Source: Candidatus Kapaibacterium sp. (GTDB lineage Bacteria; Bacteroidota; Ignavibacteria; Kapaibacteriales; UBA2268). Taken from it: a stretch of 64,000 nucleotides of DNA. Numbering within the stretch: the stretch's first letter is position 1; the number at the start of each line of letters is the position of its first letter. The DNA is taken from NCBI GenBank assembly GCA_963665665.1, contig OY762428.1, positions 2,848,001-2,912,000 on the forward strand. Direction: 5' to 3'. The position numbers are program-made. This document shows, one piece after another, positions 15,001 to 24,000 of the stretch.

Positions 15001-18000
15001 ACATTGTTTCTGAACAGGGAATATGATCTTGCTAAGGAAGTATTGAATGATGATTCGAAATGGCTGATACAGCATATCGAAAATCATTTCAAAAATCTGA
15101 AACACCTTTCATTTTCCGCCATAAGCGATAATGCCTTTGAATACCTGAAAGAAAGAATACTGAAGCTGAAATTTTTCTCGAAGGCTCTTTCTCTCGGTTC
15201 CGAGGTGCATGACATAGCCGAGAAAATACTGAACGGCGAAAGCCCTGATTATGATCCGAAGCTACAGCCGTATATCGATAATATCAGAGAAGTGATTGGC
15301 AAAATTTCAGTCCGCTACCCGGAAGTATCCGGCGCTGAGATGAAACTGGATATTAAGCTCAGCGATATTTTCGACATCGATGATGATATTAAGTTTATCG
15401 GTTATATCGATGCTGTTTTCAGAAATGGAGATCAATACCTTTTGCTGGACTGGAAAACAAATATTGCTAAAAGCCAAGAGCACAACAAATATCGCAAGCA
15501 GCTGGAAACCTACAGGCAGGGCTTTGCTTTCCAGATGAATATACCGCTTGAAAATATCCGAACAGCCATAGCCTATATCGGCCTGCGCGAAAGGGTGAAT
15601 ACCGGCCTGGTAAACTATGAACTGGCCTATGACACCAAACCCGGAGCAGTATTCAGCAATTTCACTTCGGTAGTCCGAACACTAACGGAATGGAGAAAAG
15701 ACGTAAACATCTTCTGCCGTGAATTCATCGATCAGAATATCGAAGGCGAATACCTCTGGCGCGCAATAGCAGAGCAATTGCAGAAGGAGATGGGGTAGAA
15801 ATTACTGTATATGTGCTAGTACAATTAAAGCGAAACTTGGAAGTATAAGAATTTATAGTGATTAAAATAATGAAAAAGTTATACAAATTAAACCATTAAA
15901 TAATTATTGTATTTTTACTATAAAATGAGTAATTTTTAGAATTGTTTGAACGCTTACAATATTTATTGATTTTTTAGTTTTCTACACTTATTATTAATAT
16001 TATTATGAATAATATATCAGATTTAATTGCAAAAGAAACAAGTAGTAAAAACTACAAATCATATAAGTATTGTATCGAAAATATTGAGGTTCCAAAAGTA
16101 CAATATGATGATAAACAAGATATCATTATTAAAAAAATTGGTGAGACAGACAAGGGATTAAAAAAAACAAAATCATTGAGAGAATATGCAAAAAAAATTA
16201 ATGGTAATCCATTATTTAAATACTTCCTTGATGGTTCAAGAAGAACTTATAAAGTTGATGATGTAGCCTTTAACAACAAAATTTATCCTATTATTGCTGG
16301 TCAAATAGGAGTTGGAGTTTGTTATCGTGAGAATAGTGATTTATTTAAAGCTTATAAATTTCTTAATCCATTAGCTATTAGTTTGCCAAGTGTTTTGAAT
16401 TCTGTAAGTAAAAATGATAAATTGTATTTCAACCAATTGTTGGAAAAAATAAATCAATTAAATATTTTAAAAAATCAAAATTTAAAATTTAATAGCATCT
16501 TGCCATATAGGTATAATGCTTCAAAAGAAGATGATAAATATGAAGACAGAGGCGTTGCGAAAATTCAAGATGAAATGATACGATTGGAAAAAATAACAGT
16601 AAAAGAGTTAGTTAGAGAAAAAAAACTTAATAAAAATGCATTTCTAATAAAGGATGGCTCTTTAGAATATGAATGGGATAAAAGCGATTTTAAAAATATT
16701 TCTTCGATTAAATCAAACTACGCAAATGTTGTTGGTGTTTCCAAAGCATTTAATCCAGAATCATTATCATCATATAATAAAAAAATTTCCCAAATAATTG
16801 CTGATCTATCAGAATTCCATAGAACGCCTGCATTTATGTATGAAACAACTCGAATTCCAGATGTAAAATTTGCAGTTTGGTATTTGAGGATAAGAAAAAC
16901 CGTAAATCCATTTGATGGGATTGTAAAAATTGAAAAAATTCTTGTTTGGGATAAAGAAGAAGAAGATGGATTAGATTCAGATGAAATTGATTTAATTAGT
17001 GCAAATATTATCAATGAAAGAAATCCTGTATGCTATGGGAAAGATAATAGATGGGCTAAACACTTATACCCCATATTTTTAACAGAGAATTATATTAAAA
17101 GTAAATATCTAAATGATTTTCATTTTATTAGTTTATTTTAGAGGGTATTAATATGAGCAAAATAATCGGGAAAGTGGCGGCGACAGAAAAAGCTCCAACA
17201 ACAATTGATTTTTTTTATTTTTGGACTGATAAAAATAGAATATTGAATCCTTTTGATGTTGTAAAAGTTAAACATATTAATAATTCGACAACTTTTGGAG
17301 TTATTGAAGAAATATCTCATATTACTGACTCTGCTAGCTATTTAAGTTGTTATATATCAAATGATTTTGGTAATGTTGATTTGCAACCAAATTCAAATCG
17401 TATAGGACTAAATTATGTTAAAGCAAAGGTTGTTGGAAATAATGATAATATTTATACACCAGTGTTAAATGGGAGTGATGTAAGTATCGCAGATTCAAAT
17501 GAAATTTTGCAAGCTTTAGGGTTAGATAAAATTAAGAATCCGATGCCTTGTGGATATATTGAAATGTATAGGGGAGAGGATAAAAAAATATTACCTGTAA
17601 ATTTCAACGCACAATTTTTAATTGGGCCTGAAGGTGCACATTTGAATATTTCGGGGATATCAGGTCTTGCAGCAAAAACTTCATATTCTATGTTTTTACT
17701 AAAGGCTATTCAAGAAAAATATGGAAATCAATCTGATGATGATGATATTGATTCCGTTGCATTTGTTGTATTTAATGTAAAGGGAAGGGATCTTTTAGCG
17801 ATTGACGAACCCAATACTAATTTAAGTGAAAAGGATAAAGCAATTTATAAAGATATGATGCAACTTAAAACTAACCCATTTGAAAATGTTACATACTTTT
17901 ACCCATATGCAGAACATTCTACTTCAAAAACATTAAGTTATGGAGAAAAAAATGATATTGAAGCACAAATTGACAACAACAAAGCTTTTAAGTATAAATA

Positions 18001-21000: not shown

Positions 21001-24000
21001 CTTGATTATTCGATTCTAGATGAGATTGATTATAAATATCCTGAAAATGATGCTTATTATAGTTATGTAACTAGAGGATGTATAAGAAAATGTAAGTTTT
21101 GTGCTGTATGGAAGATCGAACCAAAATTCGAACAATATATCTCAATTAAAAATAACATCGATAAAGCAAAATTAATATATGGAGAAAAAAGGAACTTACT
21201 TTTATTAGACAATAACGTACTTGCTTCAAATCAATTTCCAAAAATTATCAAAGAAATTAAAGCATGTGGTTTTTTTAAGGGTGCAAAATATATTGAACCA
21301 AATTATTTAGATATTGCAGTGGAAAATCTCAAAAATTGTATAAATGATAAAGCATATATAAATAAAAGTTTTGAATTGTATCACTATCTATTAAATAAAT
21401 TAAAGGGAGATAAACAACAAGAACTTTATAACCTTCTCAATGAATATAATTTATTAAACATTGATACGGCAACAAAAGAAAATATATTATTAGTTTATTT
21501 AGAAGTAAAGGACTTATTTGAGAAACATAGAAATAAAACAAAGAAATTGAGGTACGTTGATTTTAATCAAGGTGTTGACGCCAGATTAATTAATGAGGAT
21601 AATATGCGGCTATTAAGTGAAATCCCAATTAAACCGTTAAGGATTGCATTTGATAATATTGCATACAAAGATATATATATTAAGGCTATTCAATTGGCAA
21701 AAAAGTATGGAATAAATGATCTCTCCAACTATTTATTATATAATGAAAATGATAAGCCATCGGAATTATATGAGAGGTTAGAAATAAATGTTCTTCTATC
21801 TGAGGAGTTAAACATTAGTATATATTCATTTCCTATGAAATATCATCCGATATCTGGAGAAAAATTTTTAACTCGTGATTATCTCGGATTACATTGGAAT
21901 AGAAAATATATTAGAGCCATTCAAACGATTTTAAATTCAACTAAAGGAAAAATTGGAAAAGGTGTAAGCTTCTTTTATGAAGCTTTTGGCAATAATCTAA
22001 ATGAATATCATAAAATTTTAATAATGCCGGAAACCTATATATTATATCGTTTTTTCTTTAGAGATATCGGATTTACTTCTAAATGGTGGCAAGACTATAA
22101 TAATTTATCTATTAATCAAAAAAATAATGCGTTGGATATAATAAAAACTAACGAGTTTAATAATATTGAGAAATATACAAATAGTTATGTTATTAAATCA
22201 TTTATCAAAGAACATTATTTAATTAGTCGAAATGATATTGTAAATCCAAAATCAAAAATTTATAAATTAAAGGAAAAATACAATAGAAATAAAAAATAAA
22301 AAATATTTTTATTCCTAAAATATCAATAATTTTTTTGGTTTAGATTATGCAACAAATATATACAATTAATAAGCCTCTACCATATTTATCAGGATCCCTC
22401 CTTCAAATTTTTTTATCCTGTCTCACCCAATATTCGAGGCCGGCAGCAAACTCCTCAGTTGCTATCAGCCCCCGTATGTAATTTTATTTCGGCTTTGTGG
22501 GCCATCACCCTATAGGAATTCTGCTAAACAGGCTTTTGTTGATGTAAATGTATGATAATATTGACTTTAATGCCGTTGGTATGTTCTTTGGAAACAATTT
22601 TTTGTGCCGGAAACCCGCTGTTTTATGCTTCCCGAGCGTTCCCCCGAGCTTCCCGAGCATTACCCCGTGCCTGCCGAGCGTTCCCTCATGCTTTCCGAGC
22701 ATTCCCTCGTACTTCCCGAGCGTTCCCTCGTGCTTTCCGAGCTTTCTCCAGAGCTTCCCGAGCGTTCCCCCGAGCTTTCCGAGCATTCCCCCGTGCTTTC
22801 CGAGCATTCCCCCGAGCCTGCCGAGCATTCCCCCGAGCTTCCCGAGCGTTCCCCCGAGCTTCCCGAGCGTTCCCCCGAGCTTCCCGAGCGTTCCCCCGAG
22901 CTTCCCGAGCGTTCCCCCGAGCTTTCCGAGCGTTCCCCCGAGCTTTCCGAGCCTTCCCTCGTGCTTCCCGAGCCTTCCCCCAAGCTTTCCGAGCTTTCTC
23001 CAGAGCCTGATTATCGCTGATATATGTCATCTTAGCGTTGGGATGTGCCGTCTTAACGTTGGTTCGTGTCATCTTAGCCTTGGTTTGTGTTATCTTAGCC
23101 TTGGTATGTGTCATCTTAGCCTTGGTTCGTGTCGTCTTAGCCTTGGTATGTGTCGTCTTAGTCTTGGTATGTTACGTCTTAGCCTTGGTATGTGTCGTCT
23201 TAGCCTTGGTTCGTGTCGTCTTAGCCTTGGTTTGTGTCATTTTAGCGTTGGTTTGTGCTTCCAAAAACATTTTTTCAGGTAAAATTTTACTCAGAAAAGA
23301 CAGAAATTTACTTTTTTGATATAGATTTTCGTTCTATTGGTCCGTTCGATCCATTTTATCAATTGCTGCTTCTATCCGAAAGTGCCGGTAATCGCTTTTG
23401 CCGGGTGAATATTTGGTTTTTAAATATTGGGGTTTGCTATGCCCGGCATGGTTGAGAATCCAAAGGCACATAATTTCCATCGGACGGGGGCGGAAGTGCC
23501 CCGGGCGCTTTGCCGTGACAGTATTATTGTTTCGGATTATCATATTTTTGCTTGCTCCATTATATTTCTGCCATTAATAAAAGTATTCTATTCTATCCTG
23601 ATCGATAGCATGGGAAAGAGTTAAGTTCAATCCCTTGGTTCAGGTGTTGGAATATTATACTCCTTCATCCCTTCCTTTAGATTCTTCTTTATCCTGTCGG
23701 CCAGTTCGAGTGGTTCCAGGACTTTTATTACGCCGGTCCAGCTCATTATCCATGATTCGAAGTCCTTTACGAGGGGGACGGTCATTTCCAGTATCATGTT
23801 GCCGTTTTTATCTTTGCTGATCTTCTGTGAGTTGTGCCAGAAACGCTTTTCGAAATACTGTGTGAATTCCTTTTTTATAAGCAGTTTTACGTTTGCCGGT
23901 TTGCCGTGATAAACGCCGAATCTTTCTTTGCTCCACTCGTTGAAGTCGAAAGGAAGGATTTTATCGCTTACTTTTTCGCAGGGGGATATTTGGCTTATGT

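Follow-up and report, generated by a model that had tools for sequence, protein, structure and literature searches.

Organization of the four-gene cassette

The window, the 64,000-nt stretch of the Candidatus Kapaibacterium sp. genome analysed here, holds four closely spaced, co-directional open reading frames at 16005-22299. ORF calling placed them exactly at the positions and with the lengths given in a genome-wide survey's note, and all four of its domain assignments were borne out. On the forward strand, gene A (16005..17141, 378 aa) encodes a predicted nuclease of the NurA (RNase H-like) fold, gene B (17153..18826, 557 aa) a bacterial-type HerA ATPase of the FtsK/HerA superfamily, gene C (18833..20392, 519 aa) a GHKL ATPase of the Hsp90/MutL/MORC type, and gene D (20389..22299) a radical SAM enzyme of 636 aa if translation starts at a TTG. 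From an alternative ATG at 20392, D is 635 aa long, the same length as the identical database protein P0005. With stop codons included in the genes, the spacers measure 11 nt (A-B) and 6 nt (B-C), and C and D overlap by 4 nt (TTG) or 1 nt (ATG); the gaps of 14, 9 and –1 bases reported previously are the same spacing counted without stop codons. Directly 5′ of A lies an AT-rich intergenic leader of 206 nt (15799..16004, forward strand), the presumed promoter region of a four-gene operon. A σ70-type scan yielded 55 sites compared to 50.7 ± 6.4 expected from shuffled sequences, and no promoter was identified.

Domain architecture of the encoded proteins

Gene A is without a match in Pfam, PADLOC, NCBIfam or PHROG, reproducing the absence noted earlier for the first three. 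Its AF2 model (pTM 0.86) predicts a NurA fold: Foldseek ranks only NurA and NurA-related structures at the top (7f6d_G, 2.7e-10; 1zup_A, 5.5e-8; 2ygk_A, 2.3e-6; 8wfd_G of TdpAB, 6.4e-5; 3tai_A, 3.8e-4). The earlier matches to NurA and TdpAB were therefore recovered, but the pLDDT was 85.7 and not 92.8. The sole PDB match of a sequence profile was also NurA (7f6d_H, E 0.6), and the acidic or histidine residues D76, D85, D86, E195, D217, D347 and H353 are invariant in 24 homologues.

The profile of B, built from 21 homologues, matches only Deinococcus HerA (7f6d_B, E 4.8e-48), the structure already named in the survey. The Walker A (G168-x-x-G171-x-x-K175-T176) and Walker B (D442-E443) residues are invariant. 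Weak matches connect B to HerA models of PADLOC and NCBIfam and to the PADLOC model mad8 (3.6e-7, the value already noted). With a mean pairwise identity of 0.65, B is the most highly conserved of the four genes.

For C, the Hsp90-like GHKL assignment was confirmed by Pfam HATPase_c_3 (1.7e-8) and the HSP90/HtpG models of NCBIfam, and its profile aligns residues 10-135 with the HtpG N-domain (1.3e-12). The Bergerat-fold positions E32, N36, D39, D73, G77, G102, G105 and G107 are invariant. Its middle domain and a helix at the C terminus are conserved as well, and a coiled-coil region is rich in K and E. C matches no PADLOC model. In a scan of the genome it was the sole copy of its kind, the second match being a 620-aa HtpG-like ORF.

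D was described as a radical SAM enzyme with a CxxxCxxC motif, and this motif (C231-x3-C235-x2-C238) is indeed invariant in 25 homologues, in which no further cysteine is. Pfam Radical_SAM scores 31.2 bits (cut-off 29.5) and B12-binding 20.6 bits, below its cut-off of 32.1; D also matches phrog_9298 (2.8e-35). The AF2 model (pLDDT 88.6) consists of an N-terminal Rossmann-like (B12-binding-like) domain with a helical insert, a radical SAM barrel and a C-terminal helical domain. Its sequence profile finds no match in the PDB. By structure, Foldseek retrieves TsrM (4.2e-6), MgmA (1e-5) and MiaB (3.1e-5), then AprD4 and OxsB, and VIA ranks AprD4 (Z 20.7), MgmA (19.3), TsrM (18.8), OxsB (18.5) and MiaB (∼17). 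D has the two-domain layout and the cysteine motif in common with class B radical SAM methylases and with look-alikes of these that lack B12 (TsrM, MgmA, OxsB, CysS, TokK; AprD4; MiaB/RimO; VIA Z 17-21), but shares only 11-16% identity with them and differs by large helical inserts (∼47-122 and ∼306-380), a C-terminal helical domain of ∼130 aa and the lack of auxiliary-cluster cysteines. To our knowledge, AprD4, the best VIA match, and MiaB do not use cobalamin; since the B12-binding match also lies below its cut-off, cobalamin-dependent methylase chemistry stays tentative for D. We know of no solved relative of D that acts on DNA, the closest folds acting on small molecules, peptides or proteins, or tRNA. 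Across phyla, D retains 49-74% identity, a strong conservation, and in contrast to sequence-specific methylases it has no obviously variable target-recognition part, an observation that would speak against a DNA-marking enzyme.

Genomic context and distribution

The cassette has a GC content of 27.0%, compared to 38.1% in the rest of the window; the 32.8% given earlier for the island was not reproduced and must cover a wider stretch. At 24 of 25 other loci, too, the cassette is poorer in GC than the sequence flanking it. D is found in none of six genomes of the same family and, in agreement with the survey, in 5 of 401 genomes of the phylum. Based on this low GC content and scattered occurrence, the cassette is horizontally acquired and of foreign origin. 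The defence-island neighbours described before, a GajB-like UvrD/PD-(D/E)XK helicase, WYL/WCX regulators (three) and PDC-S29, are present in the window, as are PDC-S26 and PDC-S02. Elsewhere the cassette adjoins ICE genes, integrases, Fic, RhuM and Abi_2. Some copies are decaying, with a split A or C (L024, L029, L033, L071).

The A-B-C-D order recurs in three of the four other positive genomes of the phylum, as claimed; the fourth locus is a contig fragment. The accompanying statement that few other genomes carry the cassette was wrong: of 185,579 species genomes, at least 567 encode a relative of D, and these are distributed over many bacterial phyla and two archaeal lineages. Among the best 80 of at least 557-567 matches per scan, a selection biased towards close relatives, the order A-B…GHKL…D is kept in 67 of 70 untruncated D-anchored genome loci, the other three being H-I-D trios without A-B, and of 58 A-anchored loci with room of 6.4 kb or more, 56 carry D. 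Both exceptions are long-format loci that end at a contig end. In gene content, A is strictly dependent on D while D is present without A, as would be expected if the executor is toxic and the writer protective. Together with the varied nuclease partners described below, this asymmetry also suits D as an indispensable sensor.

Pairwise distances over 57 loci correlate strongly for A-B (r 0.91), less for A-C and B-C (both 0.71), and only at 0.41-0.46 for D with A, B or C, values subject to shared ancestry and to the unequal conservation of the four genes. Where a locus has two GHKL genes, we used the one that matches C best, namely the gene adjoining A-B. A and B co-evolve tightly and D is loosely coupled, which fits a writer acting on DNA and not via a tight protein complex.

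Partners of D outside the cassette

On alphaproteobacterial plasmids, those of Rhizobium and Novosphingobium, D-family genes are associated with a DGQHR protein (TIGR03187, 2.1e-41; DpdB, 8e-18), ParB_N and SNF2. The same partners occur in L106, and in L105 a DndB fusion accompanies the D-family gene. DGQHR/DndB/ParB-type proteins characterise the Dnd and Dpd systems of DNA modification, DndB and DpdB being DGQHR proteins themselves, and we know of DGQHR/DndB/DpdB-type partners only from such systems. Their position beside the D family supports a role in DNA modification. On phage contigs, ParB-type "DGNRR/EGNSR" proteins precede short D genes. One phage (L107) carries a D-like gene in a replication/recombination module beside a RecE-like exonuclease, endonuclease VII, a primase and a helicase; in L108 a lone D-like gene is followed ∼5.9 kb downstream on the same contig by a terminase gene, and in Marinitoga camini virus 1 a short D-like gene adjoins genes annotated as HerA and NurA.

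D is also found with a GHKL gene beside DISARM-like DrmA/MZB helicases and Mrr_cat (L104), beside HNH-WYL (L103), or, on the L081/L082 plasmids, in one locus with a PIN_8 gene paired to a second GHKL gene (PIN-GHKL2). Some A-B loci carry an inserted NsnB/NsnC-like OLD-type pair, and gene E of extended cassette variants matches mad3 (4e-9 to 8e-9). A plasmid homologue shows weak MutL matches.

Comparison with known systems

With HerA-NurA of Deinococcus radiodurans (7f6d) and archaea, the cassette shares the predicted NurA fold of A, the HerA type of B, and the adjacency and co-evolution of the two genes. It differs in that A lacks a sequence-family match, Mre11/Rad50 is absent, the pair is always joined by a GHKL ATPase and a radical SAM enzyme, and its occurrence is patchy, horizontally mobile and within defence islands. 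TdpAB (8wfd, 8wet) is a phosphorothioate-sensing immune pair of HerA-like and NurA-like proteins that is held off self DNA by the modification. The cassette has the same combination of ATPase and nuclease, although A matches TdpAB more weakly than genuine NurA, a GHKL ATPase is added, and the presumed writer is a radical SAM enzyme instead of a Dnd-type sulphur-insertion machinery; DndC was not found in this genome. In Dnd and Dpd systems, an ATPase accompanies the writer (DndD, DpdB). Distant members of the D family adjoin DGQHR/DndB/ParB-type proteins, SNF2 helicases and ParB_N proteins, whereas the cassette of the window contains no DGQHR gene and a radical SAM enzyme in place of DndACDE or the DpdA transglycosylase.

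C shares Bergerat motifs and a defence context with the immune GHKL ATPases MORC/paraMORC, which occur in restriction-modification contexts, MzaB and TmtA of Tiamat; paralogous H proteins match MzaB (6e-9 to 1.5e-7) and TmtA. C itself is closest in sequence to Hsp90/HtpG N-domains and lacks a fused nuclease. MADS (methylation-associated defense system, mad1-8) combines an m6A methylase with two modules, the OLD-like MAD3/4 and the ATPase-nuclease MAD7/8 (PMC13662399), and such a modification-based system with two ATPase-nuclease modules parallels the cassette. Despite the matches of B to mad8 and of E to mad3, the cassette contains neither an m6A methyltransferase nor a kinase nor any further mad gene; no mad model is matched by A, C or D, and the match of B spans residues 380-494 only.

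The NurA-HerA-GHKL-radical SAM cassette is widespread but undescribed. In the literature we found no description of it except for one sentence, in the accessible part of a preprint (bioRxiv 10.64898/2026.10.19.760177), on a three-gene neighbourhood "PAACC + HSP90 chaperone + Radical SAM enzyme", whose partners are read there as antitoxin-like inhibitors of a cyclase-like effector. An Hsp90-like ATPase, a radical SAM enzyme and a predicted immune context are common to both, and this neighbourhood might be the H-I-D trio. The word "HerA" is absent from that part of the preprint, so the NurA-HerA cassette is not described in it.

Proposed function of the cassette

Most likely the cassette shields its host from foreign DNA. 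We propose, with about an even chance of being right, that it resembles a restriction-modification system in which D marks DNA and NurA-HerA together with the GHKL ATPase destroys unmarked DNA. It would be a horizontally mobile anti-invader system assembled from two modules, a writer and an executor. As writer, D would place a covalent mark on self DNA by means of a 5′-deoxyadenosyl radical; cobalamin may take part, as it does in class B methylases. In the executor, the hexameric translocase HerA (B) would feed DNA into the NurA nuclease (A), and both would processively degrade DNA without the mark, for example phage or plasmid DNA that enters with free ends. On self DNA they would be stopped or excluded by the mark, a mark-gated degradation logic known from TdpAB. 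By analogy to MutL, MORC and Tiamat, C most probably serves as a clamp on DNA that is driven by ATP and couples the nuclease module to the DNA's state. We infer that D acts on DNA and that the cassette defends, and likewise what the mark is, whether cobalamin is used and what C does. The survey had already suggested marking by the radical SAM enzyme and degradation by NurA-HerA, and comparative evidence lends this partial support: the DGQHR/DndB/ParB partners, the phage copies, the varied nucleases and helicases, and the absence of A without D. If true, a radical SAM enzyme would serve as the DNA-marking writer of a restriction-modification-like defence, with a chemistry of a kind not yet known.

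Alternatively, D and the GHKL clamp could act on invader nucleic acid and license NurA-HerA, leaving self DNA unmarked by D; D might damage or tag the foreign DNA by hydrogen abstraction, or it might detect some DNA feature specific to phages. A constant D with varied nucleases is also typical of sensor-plus-effector immune systems, its high conservation without a variable specificity part agrees with this, and the absence of A without D fits an obligatory activator too. We nevertheless consider this explanation unlikely: lone D-like genes in phage replication modules and phage pairs of ParB-like proteins with D are hard to reconcile with a host sensor but natural for self-modification, DGQHR/DndB/DpdB-type partners point to DNA modification, and the partner nucleases carry no recognisable signal-sensing domain.

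It is quite improbable that D makes an antiviral or signalling molecule, such as a modified nucleotide, and that the other three proteins act separately on DNA. Viperins are radical SAM enzymes that modify nucleotides in immunity, and the closest folds of D include the small-molecule enzymes AprD4, OxsB and TsrM. However, D is strictly coupled only to DNA-handling proteins (NurA, HerA, GHKL, ParB/DGQHR, SNF2, DISARM-like helicases), none of its partners has a nucleotide-sensing or ligand-binding effector domain, and with no sequence-level match to any solved enzyme, its link to viperin is the shared superfamily only.

We assign an equally small chance to a maturase that post-translationally modifies A, B or C, the real system then being NurA-HerA-GHKL. 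MgmA, a B12 radical SAM enzyme that methylates methyl-coenzyme M reductase, is among the best structural matches of D, and the reading frames of C and D adjoin and overlap. Yet D occurs in phages without A, B or C and elsewhere with quite different partners, so it has no constant partner protein, and its co-evolution with A, B and C is loose, whereas one would expect a maturase dedicated to one substrate to evolve along with it.

Least probable is a mobile DNA-repair or maintenance module outside immunity that benefits the host or its carrier element, in which NurA-HerA would resect ends, together with a MutL-like ATPase and a radical SAM enzyme that repairs DNA as spore photoproduct lyase does: the closest solved relatives of A and B do form the Deinococcus HerA-NurA complex, which is studied as a repair machine, and GHKL ATPases include MutL, with its weak matches in the plasmid homologue, but the patchy spread, the GC content below that of the flanks, the setting in defence islands and ICE cargo regions, the OLD-type, HNH, Mrr and DISARM-like defence modules inserted or swapped into the operon, and the decay of several copies all argue against it.

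Gene organization and predicted products

The four genes of the cassette are located on the forward strand of the window and comprise open reading frames of 378 aa (gene A, 16005–17141), 557 aa (gene B, 17153–18826), 519 aa (gene C, 18833–20392), and 636 aa with a TTG start (gene D, 20389–22299). From an alternative ATG at 20392, D has 635 aa, the length of an identical database entry. A and B are separated by 11 nt and B and C by 6 nt, C and D overlap at their stop and start codons, and A is preceded by an AT-rich leader of 206 nt. The GC content of the cassette is 27.0% (25–29% for each single gene) versus 38.1% in the rest of the window. 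A promoter and terminator scan of positions 15700–22600 gave no excess over shuffled sequence, no convincing direct or inverted repeats flank the cassette as insertion marks, and no tRNA gene lies near it, the sole tRNA of the window being found at 50745. The public runs that list the stretch are three DNA runs of one study, with no RNA run among them.

The product of gene A retrieved nothing from Pfam (E up to 1, including the NurA family), PADLOC, NCBIfam, or PHROGs, and its profile found only 7f6d_H in the PDB, with an E value of 0.6. For an AF2 model built from 24 homologues (pLDDT 85.7, pTM 0.86), Foldseek ranks 1–6 are all NurA or NurA-like chains, including 7f6d_G (2.7e-10), 1zup_A (5.5e-8), 2ygk_A (2.3e-6), 8wfd_G of TdpAB (6.4e-5), and 3tai_A (3.8e-4), with the RNase H-like PIWI domains of Argonaute proteins far behind. 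The model thus predicts an RNase H-like NurA fold. Invariant residues of A are D76, D85, D86, E195, D217, D347, and H353. The catalytic residues of NurA follow the order D-E-D-H; D76, E195, D217, and H353 lie on a strand, a helix, a strand, and a helix in that order and, by this comparison of order only, may be the corresponding residues of A.

For B, a profile search of the PDB returned a single protein, the Deinococcus HerA 7f6d_B (4.8e-48). A Walker A motif (G168xxGxxK175T, with K175-T176) and a Walker B motif (D442-E443) are invariant. B is a bacterial-type HerA of the FtsK/HerA superfamily. In PADLOC it gives just weak mad8/HerA matches (mad8 3.6e-7, partial).

C carries the invariant positions of a Bergerat fold in motifs I–III and the G-rich loop (E32, N36, D73, G77, G102, G105, and G107) and matches Pfam HATPase_c_3 (1.7e-8). 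Its nearest relatives by sequence are the N-domains of Hsp90/HtpG (HtpG 1.3e-12), and we assign it to the GHKL ATPases. Outside the ATPase domain, C has a middle domain that is well conserved, a coiled-coil stretch rich in K and E, and a terminal helix that is likewise conserved. A complex prediction for full-length D with residues 190–519 of C, which leaves out the GHKL N-domain and was run without controls, scored 0.00 and bears neither way.

D is a member of the radical SAM superfamily: the motif C231-x3-C235-x2-C238 is invariant in 25 sequences, the Pfam Radical_SAM score is 31.2 bits against a cut-off of 29.5, and the barrel superposes on many radical SAM structures. No other cysteine is invariant in these 25 sequences, and the three N-terminal auxiliary-cluster cysteines of MiaB/RimO were not found among the invariant positions. 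In the model of D (pLDDT 88.6), four helices are inserted into a Rossmann-like N-domain, the radical SAM barrel has a helical insert of its own, and the C-domain is helical. VIA-align placed the model closest to AprD4 (Z 20.7), MgmA (19.3), TsrM (18.8), OxsB (18.5), and MiaB (∼17), and Foldseek agreed. The N-domain fold matches TsrM, MgmA, OxsB, CysS, and TokK and equally well AprD4 and MiaB (Z 17–21, ties). Because AprD4 and MiaB have the same B12-binding-like plus radical SAM layout and lack cobalamin, and because the Pfam B12-binding score of D (20.6 bits) lies below the cut-off of 32.1, “B12-dependent” is a label at the level of the fold only. A profile search with D against the PDB yielded no solved radical SAM enzyme, just two chance-level matches to other proteins. 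In PHROGs, D matches phrog_9298 (2.8e-35).

Distribution and architecture

Thousands of database entries are related to D at 56–74% identity, and their names are absent or generic with the exception of one evident misannotation. When 1.84 billion cluster representatives (clusters at 50% identity) were searched with a profile of D, 502 clusters matched at E ≤ 1e-30; relaxing the threshold to 1e-10 gave 1495, and to 1e-3 no more than 2642. The D family is large and sharply bounded inside the radical SAM superfamily. Relatives of D occur in at least 567 of 185,579 species genomes (one genome per species), which does not agree with the rarity claimed in the genome-wide survey's note, where the four genes were said to occur in few genomes beyond three of the phylum. 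Its count of D in five of 401 sampled genomes of the organism's own phylum was reproduced, as was the synteny, with A-B-(C-E-F-)C-D in three of the four other D-positive genomes. None of six genomes from the organism's own family carries D. The best 80 of the at least 567 D loci include many Bacteroidota and also Ignavibacteriota, Spirochaetota, Kiritimatiellae, Gastranaerophilales/Vampirovibrio, a Firmicutes MAG, a Hyphomicrobiales MAG, a Woesearchaeota archaeon, and Methanomethylovorans.

Among these best 80 loci, the plain A-B-C-D arrangement is found in 41 and A-B-C-D-J in 10. Further variants carry the additional genes E and F (A-B-C-E-F-C'-D in eight loci, where C' is a second C-like GHKL gene, and A-B-E-F-C-D in two) or H and I (A-B-C-H-I-D in five, A-B-H-I-D in one, and H-I-D alone in three), and 10 loci are cut by a contig end. 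NurA, HerA, a GHKL gene, and D thus occur in constant order in 67 of the 70 complete loci. The GC content of the cassette is below that of its flanks in 24 of 25 loci, and the flanks frequently carry genes of integrative and conjugative elements (TraG, relaxase, topoisomerase III), integrases, Fic, RhuM, or DUF4143. Some copies are broken: C is split in three loci (L024, L029, and L071) and A in one (L033), and in another locus (L002) an HNH gene follows B, and D is listed as a 481-aa ORF. This pattern suggests frequent decay.

The gene content was also read from the side of the nuclease, in the 80 best-scoring of at least 557 metagenome matches to A and in 15 matches from viral contigs; some viral contigs are shared with the D scan. 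D is present in 56 of the 58 loci with at least 6.4 kb between the start of A and the contig end. The two remaining loci are long formats (A-B-C-E-F-C… and A-B-C-H-I…) that end ahead of the expected D, so that in these samples every locus long enough to include D carried it along with the nuclease module. D without A-B is found on plasmids, in phages, and in three of the 70 complete loci from genomes. In gene content, the cassette shows the pattern of restriction-modification-like systems: the presumed executor (the A-B nuclease module) was not found without the presumed writer (D), which is also found alone.

Pairwise distance correlations over 57 loci that carry all four genes at nearly their full length, using the copy adjoining A-B as C where two GHKL genes are present, were 0.91 for A-B, 0.71 each for A-C and B-C, and 0.41–0.46 for D versus A, B, or C, all values being inflated by shared ancestry. 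The picture is one of NurA, HerA, and GHKL as a single unit, with D exchanged more freely.

Additional genes of the cassette variants

E is an NsnB-like ABC ATPase (AAA_15/AAA_21; NsnB 7.8e-66, mad3 8e-9) and F an NsnC-like protein; together they form an OLD-type ATPase-nuclease pair, which lies inside the operon in L026 (6186–8461), L025 (6257–8442), and eight other loci. The second GHKL paralogue, ∼41% identical to C, is present in eight of these 10 E/F loci. H, of ∼555 aa, is a second type of GHKL protein with MzaB- and TmtA-like matches. It precedes D together with I (∼330 aa, of the uncharacterized PP_RS20740 family), as in L003 (7360–9993), and in L004, L062, and L072 the locus is H-I-D only, without NurA-HerA. 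The motifs Y-x-G-x-P, A-x-QCR, and NLDFC are conserved in I, which weakly resembles a methyltransferase family of the Atlas (0.91). The fifth gene J (337–356 aa) is located directly 3′ of D in 11 loci, mostly of rumen or gut Bacteroidales (L022, 11904–12917; L028, 11889–12956; and nine others), and has no usable match in Pfam, NCBIfam, PHROGs, or the Atlas.

The D family without NurA-HerA

Alphaproteobacterial plasmids of Rhizobium, Novosphingobium, Mesorhizobium, and others encode relatives of D with 35–40% identity. In the two plasmid loci followed through their annotation, one of Rhizobium (L081) and one of Novosphingobium (L082), a DGQHR protein (TIGR03187 2.1e-41, DpdB 8e-18) is encoded directly upstream of D and a C-like GHKL protein (29% identity, 6e-57) directly downstream; a PIN_8 protein with a second GHKL belongs to the same locus, and in L081 SNF2 and ParB_N genes lie upstream. 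The second “ATP-binding protein” of the plasmids was considered as a HerA, shows no similarity to B, and is this second GHKL protein. Likewise, protein I has no similarity to the plasmid DGQHR protein.

IMG/VR contains 25 contigs with D relatives, 13 of them with the A-B-C-D set. Other contigs of this collection place D in different company: L103 has HNH-WYL, GHKL, and D; L106 has ParB_N, SNF2, a ParB-like protein, D, and GHKL; and L105 has a 767-aa DndB fusion next to a D-like gene. L104 combines a DrmA-like helicase, MZB (DUF1998), NERD-UvrD, D, GHKL, and Mrr_cat. Here, a DISARM-like array (41–14726) with a UvrD-like helicase, a 1151-aa DEAD helicase, MZB/DUF1998, and NERD-UvrD surrounds the D-GHKL pair and is followed by the Mrr_cat nuclease; the scanned genes of L104 include no methyltransferase.

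Clear phage contigs were judged by baseplate, terminase, endolysin, and primase genes. In four of them (L096–L098 and L101), a ParB-type protein (phrog_9592/3694, DGNRR motif) is followed by a short D. L108 has a lone D-like gene with a terminase gene ∼5.9 kb downstream, and in L107 the D-like gene is part of a replication/recombination module, adjoining a RecE-like exonuclease, endonuclease VII, a methyltransferase fragment, a primase, and a helicase. Phage protein X and a 334-aa protein of L106 have a ParB-type motif in common; as relatives of the DGQHR protein both were rejected, BLASTP being not significant. Marinitoga camini virus 1 (L083), a temperate virus of Thermotogota, encodes within 7866–11692 a 360-aa D-like protein (phrog_9298 4e-116) without the first half of the N-domain. 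Its gene is convergent with genes annotated as HerA and NurA, near lysogeny genes.

A restriction-modification-like reading and its rivals

The most economical reading of the cassette, to which we give about an even chance of being right, resembles restriction-modification: D would put a mark on DNA, HerA-NurA would degrade DNA without the mark, and the GHKL ATPase C, as a clamp like MutL, MORC, or Tiamat, would couple the state of the DNA to the nuclease. We favor it on comparative grounds: the D family shares its partners with the modification systems Dnd, Dpd, DISARM, and MADS; phages carry the writer alone, as they do methylases; no executor turned up that lacked the writer; and executor modules are interchangeable.

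Four rival readings are less probable. That D is a sensor or effector acting on foreign DNA seems unlikely to us. We regard it as very unlikely that D produces a small molecule, and just as unlikely that it is the maturase of a partner protein. A mobile repair module is about as improbable. The Mre11/Rad50 linkage of the archaeal HerA-NurA repair operon is absent from the 19 neighboring ORFs scanned in the window and from the conserved neighbors of the 80 loci.

Within the restriction-modification-like reading, a bolder version, less likely than not, can be put forward. D and its family, the relatives of phrog_9298, might be the first members of the radical SAM superfamily to place an epigenetic self-mark directly on DNA, made by radical chemistry that is out of reach of ordinary methyltransferases; in cells the mark would distinguish self from non-self for NurA-HerA and other nucleases, and in phages it would disguise the genome. 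Candidate marks would be C-methylation of an unactivated carbon of base or sugar, or P-methylation of the backbone. If this version is true, a new modification and a new class of writer would be common to bacteria, archaea, and their viruses.

Should the general reading be right, the cassette would be a widespread immune system, present in at least 0.3% of species genomes across many phyla, in two archaeal lineages, in gut Bacteroidales, and in phages. A self-mark made by radical chemistry would be a new kind of DNA modification besides methylation, phosphorothioation, and 7-deazaguanine, and a new role for the large radical SAM superfamily. The reading would further account for a cell's keeping the processive NurA-HerA nuclease machine, known until now chiefly from DNA repair, as a weapon. 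The D family comprises several hundred sequence clusters without a characterized member, and the rival readings, too, would provide its first function. The system is directly testable with a few point mutants and nucleoside mass spectrometry.

Relation to known systems

In TdpAB, phosphorothioate restrains a pair of HerA- and NurA-like proteins, and this pair is the nearest mechanistic counterpart of the executor. Unlike in Dnd-linked systems, DndC (TIGR03183) has no match in the organism's own genome, which is 99.5% complete. The closest blueprint for the cassette is MADS, in which an m6A methylase is joined by two ATPase-nuclease modules, the OLD-like MAD3/4 and MAD7/8 (PMC13662399). B matches mad8 and E of the extended variants matches mad3; however, the operon lacks the m6A methyltransferase mad2 and the remaining mad genes, and A, C, and D match no mad model.

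Among known anti-phage systems, PADLOC-DB v2 (2023) holds no model for A, C, or D. Full-text searches of the literature, which do not reach systems listed in supplements alone, found no description of the cassette. Passages of PMC10853773, PMC4158269, PMC5379612, PMC7159879, PMC12839542, and the Tiamat preprint contain nothing bearing on it. The one related text, a 2026 preprint (bioRxiv 10.64898/2026.10.19.760177), has a single sentence on a neighborhood of PAACC, HSP90, and a radical SAM protein, whose partners are read as antitoxin-like. This neighborhood may be the H-I-D trio, with I as the possible PAACC partner, but the preprint makes no mention of HerA.

Surroundings of the cassette in the window

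The cassette is set in a defense island. Three WYL/WCX-type regulators (6172–7152, plus strand; 8613–9593, minus strand; 23627–24709, minus strand) lie inside 18 kb and flank PDC-S26, the cassette, and PDC-S29, an arrangement typical of a regulated defense island. The island also encodes the PDC-S26 PD-(D/E)XK protein, the PDC-S29 EcsC/TerB protein, a PDC-S02 fragment, and a Schlafen/AlbA_2 protein. Upstream of A (10815–15798), a 720-aa protein without a Pfam family (weak C-terminal PDC-S48 match) is followed by a 905-aa UvrD plus PD-(D/E)XK helicase-nuclease, which matches GajB models down to 1.7e-40 and RTasHel at 3.4e-41. The two genes may form a separate two-gene defense system; the pair is not kept as a neighbor of the cassette elsewhere.

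Directly 3′ of D, positions 22627–23006 consist of 21-bp tandem repeats (18.1 copies, 86% match), and a second 21-bp array follows at 23025–23257 (11.1 copies, 85% match). Overlapping ORFs appear at 22505–23319 because these repeats leave several frames open on both strands. Farther away, the minus strand encodes a 709-aa FtsH-like protein with AAA, ClpB_D2-small, and Peptidase_M41 domains and a weak DolB match (2345–4474), as well as an ORF of 2841 aa (34005–42530).
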